From IMG/VR virus record IMGVR_UViG_2698536414_000004: a stretch of 4,626 bases of DNA; one strand, 5' to 3'. The notes under the pieces were generated by a model. The model was not told where the DNA came from, made no database searches, and was given only the letters and a program-made list of their open reading frames with translations. Source of the DNA: a virus. Lineage: Duplodnaviria > Heunggongvirae > Uroviricota > Caudoviricetes. This document shows positions 1 through 3,008 of this stretch, piece by piece. Each line of letters begins with the position of its first letter. Within the stretch, counting starts at the first letter, position 1. Position numbers and translations under genes: made by a program.

Positions 1-100
1 CCTGGCACGGCTGGGACGGAAGTCGCTGTCGTTCTCAAAATCGGTGGAGCTGCATGACAAAGTCATCGGGCATTATCTGAACATAAAACACTATCAATAA
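1..100 (+). CDS. insB: IS1 transposase InsB, C-terminal fragment (32 codons plus stop; 5' part outside window)
   Basis: Frame starting at nt 2 reads [32 protein letters not shown] with stop TAA at 98-100, matching the end of IS1 InsB. The ORF track misses it because there is no start codon in the window. Confidence 0.92.
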
Positions 101-115
101 GTTGGAGTCATTACC
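93..115 (+). repeat. IS1 right terminal inverted repeat (IRR)
   Basis: atcaataagttggagtcattacc is the reverse complement of GGTAATGACTCCAACTTATTGAT, an imperfect inverted copy of the left terminus at 4000-4022 (GGTGATGCTGCCAACTTACTGAT). Confidence 0.9.
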
Positions 116-3008
116 TAACATCCCAAACAGTGATTCACAGTACTTATTCAGTGAACAGGCAATATGCTACGCGGGAACTGAAAAGAATATAAACCAGATT
201 TATATTGATAATGAACCAGTATTAGCCGTTCCGGTCACTCAGGATGGTATTGTACCAAAGGCGAATATTGCCAGTAAGTATCAGGAATATCTACAACTTG
301 AAGTACGGTTTGGTGGCGATTATACCAGTACTAAATCTCTTGCAAGCCAATACGCCGGGCCGAAGTGGACAAATAAGTTTCTTGGTAAAGGCATTGTTTC
401 TGTCAGTGCGGTTATTAAAAAAACACAACAATCATTAGAGCAGAATCTTCTTGTGAATGATCAGTTCACGATGACTGTTGAAATGAAAGGTCAGAGAATA
501 TTAGACCTCGTAACAGGGTCAGTACTGGCGACGTCAAATCCACCATCAATTATCTACGACTATCTGACCAATACAACGTACGGGATGGGAATTGAACCGG
601 GATTAATTAATCTCGATACCTTCCTTGAAACCGCAGCGTATTGTGACCAGATGGAGTATTACGCTAATGGTTCAATTAGCTATCAAAGCTCGTACAAGGA
701 AAACATTGAAAATATCTGTCAGGTATTTGGCGGTATTATGTATGTACATGCAGGGCAAATCTGTATTACGACGGATCGTAAAACGCTTTCGGTTGCATCA
801 TTCAATGAAAATAACATGTTTGGTGCAGTACAGATCAGTACCAGCGGCGGCACAGACTACTTCAATACTGTTGATGCGAAGTACACCAATCCAGCCAGTA
901 TGTACACGACTGACGTGTTACGCATTCCTTCCGATATTACGATTGATGAGGCAATTCAGCGTGACGGGCAGGTTATTACCCTAAGCCGTGATTACTCTTG
1001 GTGCTATGACGCTGATGTACTGGCGAAGATGGTCAATGTTGATGTACTCAAGGCTAAGTACGCCTTACGTATTGTATCCTTCACCACAAGTGAAGGCTGG
1101 GATCTGAAGGTATGGGATGCGATCAACGTCAGCAATACTGAACTGAATATTTCAGGGAAGTTTAAGGTACTGTCAAAAGAAGTGGCAACCGATCAGGAGA
1201 ACGTTGGGTACGTTACAATCACGGCAGTTGAAGCCCCTGATGCAATGTACGATGGCGTAGATCCCGGTATCTGGTCACCTGGCGGTTCAATCCAGTTTCC
1301 CGAACTAAGCGTAAAGGCTCCCACGAACCTACAGGCAGTACGCAAAGGTAACACAACAAACGGCTCCCTTGTCGATCTCACATGGGATGCGTCACAAGAT
1401 CCGTGGCTACGGGGTTATTACATCTACTATAAGTTGAGTAGTTCCGGTACTTGGACGTATGCGGGAAGTACTAATACCCAGAAAACCGACTTTGAACTAT
1501 TCGGCCTCTCAGACACTGCGGCTTATGACTTTGGGGTTGAGGCATATAACAATCTCGGCCTTACGAGTAACAGACTAACGTTAACGGGATTAGTGCCGAC
1601 ATATAACTTTGCATTACCTTCCGTAACTGGTGTCGTACTGGCAAATCGCACCGTGGGGCAATATGAAACTGATTCTGCTGATTTCAATATCCGTTGGGAT
1701 AATCAGAAGAATTTAATCGTTAATGGTCGCTCATTTTCTGATTACTTCAAGTACTACACCATTAATATCTATAACGGTAGTGATTTAATCGATACATTCT
1801 ATACGCAGAGCAATACATTCAACTTTACGCTTGAAATGAACCGACTCAGAGTGCGTAAACCTACTATTGGCATTATTGCTCAGGGATTCAACAATGGTAC
1901 TTATTCACAGGAAGTACGAATTACCGTTGAGAATAAACAATGTGGATTAGTGCAGGGTGTTCAGTTCACTGGCGGGTTTAGCAACTTATTCGCCTCATGG
2001 ACTCCATCGACTGAGAGGGATTATGCCGGGGCAGTAGTGAGTATTGTTAATGGTACGAGTACTAAACTCTACACCAGTAATAAACCTGAATTTGACAGTA
2101 TACCCAACATTCCAGATGGAGAATATAAAGTTAAGGTCGGATTCTTTGATGTATTTGGACAGGACAATATTCAGTACTCGGCAGAGCAGACGGTCAGCAT
2201 TAACAGCAAATACCAGTTTACGGAAGATGATGCAGAACAGATTAATGGAATACTTGATCTCGATGATCGTCTGAATGAGACAATTGAAAATGCAGTTAAT
2301 GAAAGTAATGAATACACCAATACGCAAATCTCTACATTGAAAAACACGGTAGACGGAAACACGGCAAGCATAACAAATCTAAATCAGACTGTAGCGGATA
2401 ATGACACAGCACAATCACAGGCAGTTACACAGCTACGTAGTGATGTGAACGGGCAGATTGCCACGGTTAACCAGCAGATGAGTACAAAGGCAACTGCAAG
2501 CACTGTAGACAGCCAGTACTCATTGTCCGTCAATGCTAACGGTACTGTAGCGGGTATCCGTCTTGTTGCTTCTCAGGGAACGAGTAACAACAGTGCTATC
2601 TATTTCGCAGCAGATAAATTTATTGTCAGCGGCAGTAGTGCGGCGACAGTAGGCGGTACGGCTCCATTCTCAATCGTGAATGGTACTACCTACATCAAAA
2701 CATCCATGATTCAGGCGGCAAGTATCGGTACTGGTTACATCGCAGATGCAGCGATCACAAATGCGAAAATTGCCAATGCCAGTATTAATGCAGCAAAAAT
2801 TATCGATGGTGAAATTACCAATGCGAAAATTGGTGCCACGATACAAAGTACTAACTATGTTGCCAACTCTACAGGATGGCAGATAAATAAATCAGGTACT
2901 TTCTATATTAATGGATCTGGTGGCACAGGTAAGATGGTTATCAGTAATAACCTTATTCAGATCTACGATAACAATAATAAATTACGTGTAAGAATGGGGT
3001 TGTGGTAA
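102..3008 (+). CDS. Phage host specificity / tail tip (central tail fiber) protein, lambda gpJ-like, N-terminally truncated by IS1 (native coding sequence begins at 116; possible pseudogene or IS1-fused remnant)
   Basis: 968-codon ORF, stop TAA 3006-3008. Blocks resembling lambda gpJ as I recall it: GQRILDL ... YGMG (Y160 at nt 579) ... YCDQ; a coiled-coil-like segment followed by [10 protein letters not shown]...[11 protein letters not shown] (compare J VAGIGL...FLVAANRIAFI); [27 protein letters not shown] (compare J TIAENCTINGTLRAEKIVGDI). Three FN3-like beta-sandwich segments at about residues 400-700. The frame is open from the stop at 84-86 through the IS1 boundary at 115/116. The only start before nt 453 is TTG at 102, inside the IS1 inverted repeat, so the native 5' end is missing (roughly 100-130 codons by comparison with J). 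Confidence 0.85.
2754..2843 (+). repeat. In-frame tandem coding repeat, 3 x 30 nt ([10 protein letters not shown] / [10 protein letters not shown] / [10 protein letters not shown]) within the J-like gene
   Basis: The 10-residue period is read directly from the translation. Nucleotide direct repeat acaaatgcgaaaattg (2757-2772) and accaatgcgaaaattg (2817-2832), 15 of 16 identical, 60 nt apart. Confidence 0.75.

Follow-up and report, generated by a model that had tools for sequence, protein, structure and literature searches.

IS1 is a 768-bp insertion sequence (IS) that duplicates 9 bp (rarely 8 bp) of its target site, and two copies of it in direct orientation frame the composite transposon Tn9. 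In Escherichia coli and Shigella, insertions of the IS1A type inactivate genes by interrupting their coding sequences. Here, the contact between an IS1 end and a prophage gene is described for a window of 4626 bp (the whole stretch of DNA that was analysed), which corresponds in full to contig CYCX01000103.1 of the draft assembly GCA_001283485.1, whose deposited proteins name E. coli. The gene in question encodes a phage tail-tip protein resembling gpJ of phage lambda, and its 5' part is missing from the IS1 boundary outwards. The 968-codon open reading frame (ORF) that starts within IS1 and continues into this truncated gene is very probably a pseudogene mis-started by the gene caller. The locus as a whole is an ordinary IS1-disrupted prophage tail gene, known in kind and already deposited as a mis-started coding sequence (CDS).

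The contig consists of three parts, namely the end of one IS1, 3884 bp of prophage DNA (positions 116-3999, referred to as the cargo) and the start of a second IS1, with the two IS1 pieces bracketing the cargo in the same orientation as in the layout of Tn9 (Table 1). The left piece aligns at 100% identity, up to and including the last IS1 base, with the IS1A copy annotated in E. coli HS1496, which bears out the assignment of this segment to IS1 in an earlier note made from the sequence alone. The right piece shows one mismatch to the same copy. A T at about position 4411 of this right piece, against C in the HS1496 IS1A, is a substitution specific to the window. Matches to IS1 number in the thousands in E. 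coli genomes, and both copies end at the ends of the contig, the usual behaviour of short-read assembly at multicopy repeats. A single flank of each copy is visible, TAACATCCC beside the left one and GGCATAATG beside the right one. The right terminal inverted repeat (IRR) of the left copy, which we take to be 23 bp long with boundaries at 93 and 115, contains both the stop codon of insB and the TTG on which the long ORF depends, and the C-terminus of InsB is the sole coding part of this copy that can be seen. Altogether, the traits of the IS1 family are present: terminal repeats of about 23 bp, an insA product with zinc ribbon and helix-turn-helix domains, and the A6C motif in the right copy. 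In the identical terminal sequence, the location of the insB stop inside the IRR, the insA/insB organisation with A6C (second copy) and the interruption of a coding sequence, the locus resembles the gene-inactivating IS1A-type insertions of E. coli and Shigella, and nothing unusual was seen in it.

Table 1. Features of the 4626-bp window, in window coordinates
Feature	Position	Strand	Details
IS1 right end	1-115	+	IS1 positions 654-768; element cut by contig end
3' end of insB frame	2-100	+	Translation (frame 2) ends ...HYLNIKHYQ; stop TAA 98-100
IS1 right terminal inverted repeat (IRR)	93-115	+	ATCAATAAGTTGGAGTCATTACC; ends at last aligned IS1 base
Chimeric ORF	102-3008	+	968 codons (ORF list, translation); called as CDS in source assembly
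J-like "phage tail tip fiber protein" gene	116-3008	+	3' 2893 nucleotides (nt) of 3204; lacks first 311 nt; 99.9% identity to NZ_CP024131.1
99-amino-acid (aa) phage ORF	3008-3307	+	phrog_7961 E 8.5e-28; Shine-Dalgarno duplex -5.4 kcal/mol
215-aa phage ORF (DUF8377 / phrog_4524)	3316-3963	+	phrog_4524 E 6.2e-63; PF28254 in precomputed matches
Second IS1, left end	4000-4626	+	IS1 positions 1-627; same orientation as first; element cut by contig end
Left terminal inverted repeat (IRL) of second IS1	4000-4022	+	Matches annotated IS1A up to terminal bases; coordinates hand-counted
insA of second IS1	4055-4330	+	91-aa product with PF03811 and PF12759
A6C frameshift motif of second IS1	4306-4312	+	Hand-counted; motif described in PMC12428005

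At the boundary, the frame of the tail gene is open from a TAA at 84-86 into the cargo. An in-frame scan shows that the first start codon after this stop is the TTG at 102-104, followed by a GTG at 453 and an ATG at 471, and the gap between the insB stop and the TTG is 1 nt. Each of these coordinates, including the IS1/cargo boundary at 115/116 and the TTG as the only start before 453, had been given in the earlier note and was reproduced. The first five codons of the ORF are derived from IS1 (TTG GAG TCA TTA CCT, the boundary falling before the last T), reading M/L-E-S-L-P, and are followed by codons 105-1067 of the tail-tip gene. Every IS1 right end has this TTG and the stop at 84; the same leader arises for any IS1 in this orientation and phase, and the arrangement is therefore neither a statistical oddity nor specific to this locus. 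The 968-aa product is on record only on three IS1-bounded contigs of 2-5 kb, under four NCBI accessions (CTT79874.1 and, from sister assemblies, CTW09720.1, CTW44042.1 and CTW95269.1). It has been deposited as "phage tail protein" or "phage tail tip fiber protein" and has a UniRef entry.

The size of the loss can be read from intact copies of the gene. The cargo is 99.9% identical to DNA of E. coli 14EC007 (NZ_CP024131.1), with three substitutions in 3884 bp, and in that genome the intact CDS comprises 3204 nt and 1067 aa and is annotated as "phage tail tip fiber protein". Identity to the 14EC007 gene begins exactly at base 116, after the first 311 nt of the intact CDS. The break lies within codon Tyr104, and Asn105 onward is kept, so that the loss amounts to 104 codons, within the range of about 100-130 residues that had been estimated beforehand by comparison with gpJ. 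It could have been argued that the gene naturally starts near nucleotide 116. This is contradicted by the 90%-identity cluster of the window ORF (189 members), in which all of the named non-fragment members listed (10/10) are 1067 aa long and start 104 residues upstream of the part retained in the window.

The J-like identity of the gene, also put forward in the earlier note, is supported by several matches of the window ORF. Besides an fn3 domain, it has PF09327, the tail-tip fibre domain of the C-terminus (E 2.9e-21), and its match to phrog_31, "central tail fiber J", has an E value of 9e-62. PF13550 (Phage-tail_3) aligns with residues 294-445 just below its gathering score (21.2 bits against a cutoff of 23, E 2.9e-4). 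In the PDB search, tail-tip fibre chains match the C-terminus of the protein (E 2e-17 to 1e-12). The C-terminal fibre domain, the fn3 domain and the central J region thus correspond to those of lambda gpJ-type tail-tip or central tail fibre proteins (phrog_31, PF09327, PF13550; 9l9p_S, 9ze4_N, 7z4b), and in intact relatives the gene follows a 739-aa ORF in the tape-measure position and a distal tail protein gene, likewise as in that type. The differences are found at the N-terminus, which in the intact relative is rich in Gly and Ala and gives no PHROG match, and of which the window copy lacks residues 1-104. As the complete N-terminus of the family is absent from it, the window ORF represents a truncated J-like member.

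The lost segment is a conserved one. Across the aligned N-terminal region that includes the 104 residues, identity to homologues is 56-79%, and near-invariant positions among those lost include G36-A38, R67-S70, G80-G81, P84 and W103. The first 104 residues of the intact protein match no PHROG family, and no alignment in the PDB searches touches any of its first 237 residues, the one hit noted being a weak match of residues 294-372 to the T5 baseplate hub pb3. In the intact relative (locus L001, positions 11690-12001), residues ~8-52 form a hydrophobic, Gly/Ala-rich stretch, GGFFGAIITAVIVALAVYFTGGTALAAIGWGAAAGAASLVATSMLGQ, which looks like membrane-spanning or glycine-zipper helices; this N-terminus is conserved in homologues from Citrobacter, Shigella and Salmonella. 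Two further short products of homologous tail-tip genes (P0005 and P0011) have ~65-75 native residues followed by unrelated sequence, and may be either independent truncations within the family or cuts at contig ends.

The signals that accompany the native start of the gene are not found at the TTG. The duplex of the TTG at 102 with the anti-Shine-Dalgarno sequence has a value of +1.9 kcal/mol, worse than 98% of the positions in the cargo; the native start has an AAGGA upstream and a duplex of -6.1 kcal/mol, and the values for the two downstream ORFs are -5.4 and -5.9. A consensus scan of the + strand from 1 to 177 detected neither a promoter-like nor a terminator-like site. The internal starts at 453 (GTG), 471, 483 and 585 (all ATG) were also considered and rejected, being poor, devoid of a Shine-Dalgarno sequence and none of them better than the TTG at 102. 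The remnant would be expected to have no meaningful expression and no function. Several points weigh against this expectation. Where stop and start lie so close together, terminating ribosomes may reinitiate even if a Shine-Dalgarno sequence is lacking, and a trace of chimeric protein could be made in this way. In addition, the DNA upstream of the left IS1 is outside the contig, and read-through transcription from there is possible. The promoter scan was based on a simple consensus, which a weak site could escape. Finally, IS1 ends can provide a -35 box and create a fusion promoter if the target holds a suitable -10 box (review PMC9330008); no such arrangement was detectable at this IS1 end by the consensus scan.

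The following reading of the IS1-truncated probable pseudogene can be proposed. An IS1 co-directional with the tail genes abuts nucleotide 312 of the 3204-nt J-like gene, whose home is probably a siphovirus-type prophage located between yeaG and mipA in E. coli. Along with the first 104 codons, the gene has lost its own ribosome-binding site and the operon context upstream of it. Because the IS1 right end is open in phase with the gene frame and carries a TTG, the first start available to the gene lies inside IS1, and a 968-codon ORF arises mechanically; the gene caller would have extended it to the first permitted start, which accounts for its annotation. The prophage would no longer be able to make a complete tail tip, and the second IS1, 3884 bp downstream, parts the segment from the next gene. 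The lack of internal stops fits a recent event, given that only 3-4 substitutions separate the 3884-bp segment from intact copies. The relevance of the case is mainly one of annotation hygiene, since the deposited 968-aa protein has five residues encoded by the IS1 repeat and lacks its true N-terminus. It is also an example of the way in which prophage tail modules in E. coli are broken up by IS1, with the pieces surfacing as short IS-bounded draft contigs; no new biology is implied.

As for the origin of the break, the earlier note had attributed the truncation to an insertion of IS1. Truncation at the IS1 boundary stands; the insertion event itself does not follow from it, as an adjacent deletion or rearrangement fits equally well. 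A simple insertion predicts a 5' remnant followed by the 9-bp duplication TAACATCCC and the IS1 left end, that is, ...TCTCATGGTATAACATCCC directly joined to GGTGATGCTGCC. This junction can also be written as ...TGGTATAACATCCC then GGTGATGCTGCC, its right-side counterpart being the IRR of IS1 followed by GGCATAATGTATGGATTTC. None of nine predicted chimeras, in which the 5' remnant joins one or the other end of IS1 with an overlap of 0 or 7-11 bp, is present in a collection of 15 billion proteins that does hold the 968-aa ORF, and a homology search with the predicted chimera retrieved only short unrelated fragments of other homologues, with no exact match. DNA patterns for both junctions are likewise absent from species-representative genomes, metagenome contigs and viral contigs, collections that exclude the other contigs of GCA_001283485.1. 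The missing 5' part, which according to the earlier note should be sought beside another IS1 end, was found in none of the protein, genome-representative, metagenome and viral collections.

These negative results lean slightly towards a deletion or rearrangement mediated by IS1 over a simple insertion. It is conceivable, and is retained as a tentative alternative, that the gene was truncated by an IS1-mediated adjacent deletion or some other IS1-IS1 rearrangement, in which case this genome would lack its 5' part, perhaps along with tail and head genes upstream of it. IS1 is known to generate adjacent deletions by a replicative route (Turlan and Chandler 1995, cited in PMC9330008), and the failure of all nine predicted products to appear among the proteins, together with the absence of the 5' junction pattern from metagenome and viral contigs, agrees with such an event. 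However, absence from the protein index is weak evidence, since it misses genes that are interrupted at the edge of a contig or were never called, and even the full-length protein escaped the homology search, and the scope of the contig collections with respect to this assembly limits the DNA result in the same way. A deletion would change only how the locus came about; the finding itself would be of the same kind.

Low-level expression of the remnant is an unlikely alternative to the pseudogene. It supposes that ribosomes ending InsAB' at the TAA of insB reinitiate at the TTG and yield a tail-tip protein that lacks its N-terminus but has some activity, such as that of a free receptor-binding protein. 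The geometry on which this idea rests, already pointed out in the earlier note as a possible coupling of an IS1-initiated chimera to insB, is real: stop and start are 1 nt apart, the frame stays open for 968 codons without internal stops and with 3-4 substitutions over 3884 bp relative to intact relatives, and neither the C-terminal fibre and receptor-binding part (PF09327) nor the fn3 domain is damaged. In its spacing the junction also resembles translationally coupled gene pairs, a genuine instance of which is found in the window itself, where the stop of the tail-tip gene overlaps the next ATG (TAATG, 3006-3010). Unlike in such pairs, the upstream insB frame is rarely translated and the TTG has no Shine-Dalgarno sequence; close spacing is found, whereas efficient translation of the upstream frame and a usable start signal are not, and the adjacency would be an accident of the insertion phase. 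It has been reported that the IS1 promoter is extremely weak and repressed by InsA, that ribosomes enter the insB frame only by way of a rare -1 frameshift at A6C (~2% in a plasmid system), and that constitutive frameshifting raises transposition ~900-fold (PMC12428005). Few ribosomes would therefore reach the insB stop, and those that did would meet a weak start codon. The undecayed frame is equally well explained by a recent event, given the 99.9% identity to intact copies, and correct assembly of the product is doubtful because the lost N-terminus is conserved. Of the coupling proposed earlier, the spacing thus holds, while expression is expected to be negligible on account of the missing Shine-Dalgarno sequence, the missing promoter-like site and the ~2% frameshift.

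It is very unlikely that both IS1 ends belong to a single mobile or amplified unit, either a Tn9-like IS1-cargo-IS1 transposon or an excised or tandem circle of IS1 plus cargo. The two pieces lie in direct orientation, the layout that Tn9 also has, and jointly span 742 of the 768 IS1 bases, only IS1 positions 628-653 being absent, as a circle or tandem array would assemble from short reads. This coverage may have come about by chance during assembly or gap filling, or it may point to a circular or tandem path. The resemblance to a Tn9-type composite transposon is confined to the two direct IS1 ends around a 3.9-kb segment; unlike in Tn9, there is no sign of movement, and elsewhere the cargo occurs only in native prophage context. 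In plasmids no matches were obtained beyond the IS1 ends, and at megablast level none in phage records. The cargo is present in one complete E. coli genome only, where the copy is intact and sits in its native prophage context without IS1, and the same IS-cargo-IS unit was not seen in more than one genomic context. Furthermore, the cargo holds no selectable gene, the recurrence of the same contig in three to four assemblies fits stable chromosomal inheritance, and a repeat at both ends of a draft contig is the normal outcome for two chromosomal IS copies. Most improbable of all is that the unit is a Tn9-like cassette that moves a receptor-binding module between prophages, its cargo being the N-terminally truncated tail-tip gene and two small tail-associated ORFs, or that the truncated protein is made from IS1 signals and acts by itself, for instance as a free receptor-binding or exclusion factor.

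The surroundings of the gene agree with the description of the locus in the earlier note as a degraded prophage tail region, with the N-terminus lost and the second IS1 at 4000 severing the tail segment from the next gene. The intact 1067-aa gene is also found in four more E. coli contigs, inside a full tail module of a prophage adjoining mipA. The order of the module is major tail protein, 739-aa ORF (usual tape-measure position), pb9-like distal tail protein, 207-aa ORF, DUF6950 and J-like gene, followed on the 3' side by the 99-aa ORF, the 215-aa ORF, the DUF2730 ORF and lysozyme. Placed by means of the intact relative, the right IS1 lies 1 nt before the start codon (ATG) of the gene that follows, a 90-aa DUF2730 ORF. 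The ATG of the 99-aa ORF overlaps the tail-tip stop; a gene call for this ORF exists in the source assembly and in one of the four E. coli contigs with the full tail module, but none in the RefSeq record of 14EC007, where the ORF falls in the gap at 14893-15201 of L001. The exact 215-aa protein occurs in 320 blocks of the assembly collection. At position 3459, within the 215-aa ORF, the window has a C and all five related loci have an A, a difference that is synonymous. In 14EC007, the sole complete E. coli genome in which this tail gene occurs, the same prophage has been independently degraded (L001 4655-11304): most of its head and tail genes upstream have given way to two IS3-family elements, beside a large serine recombinase gene next to yeaG.

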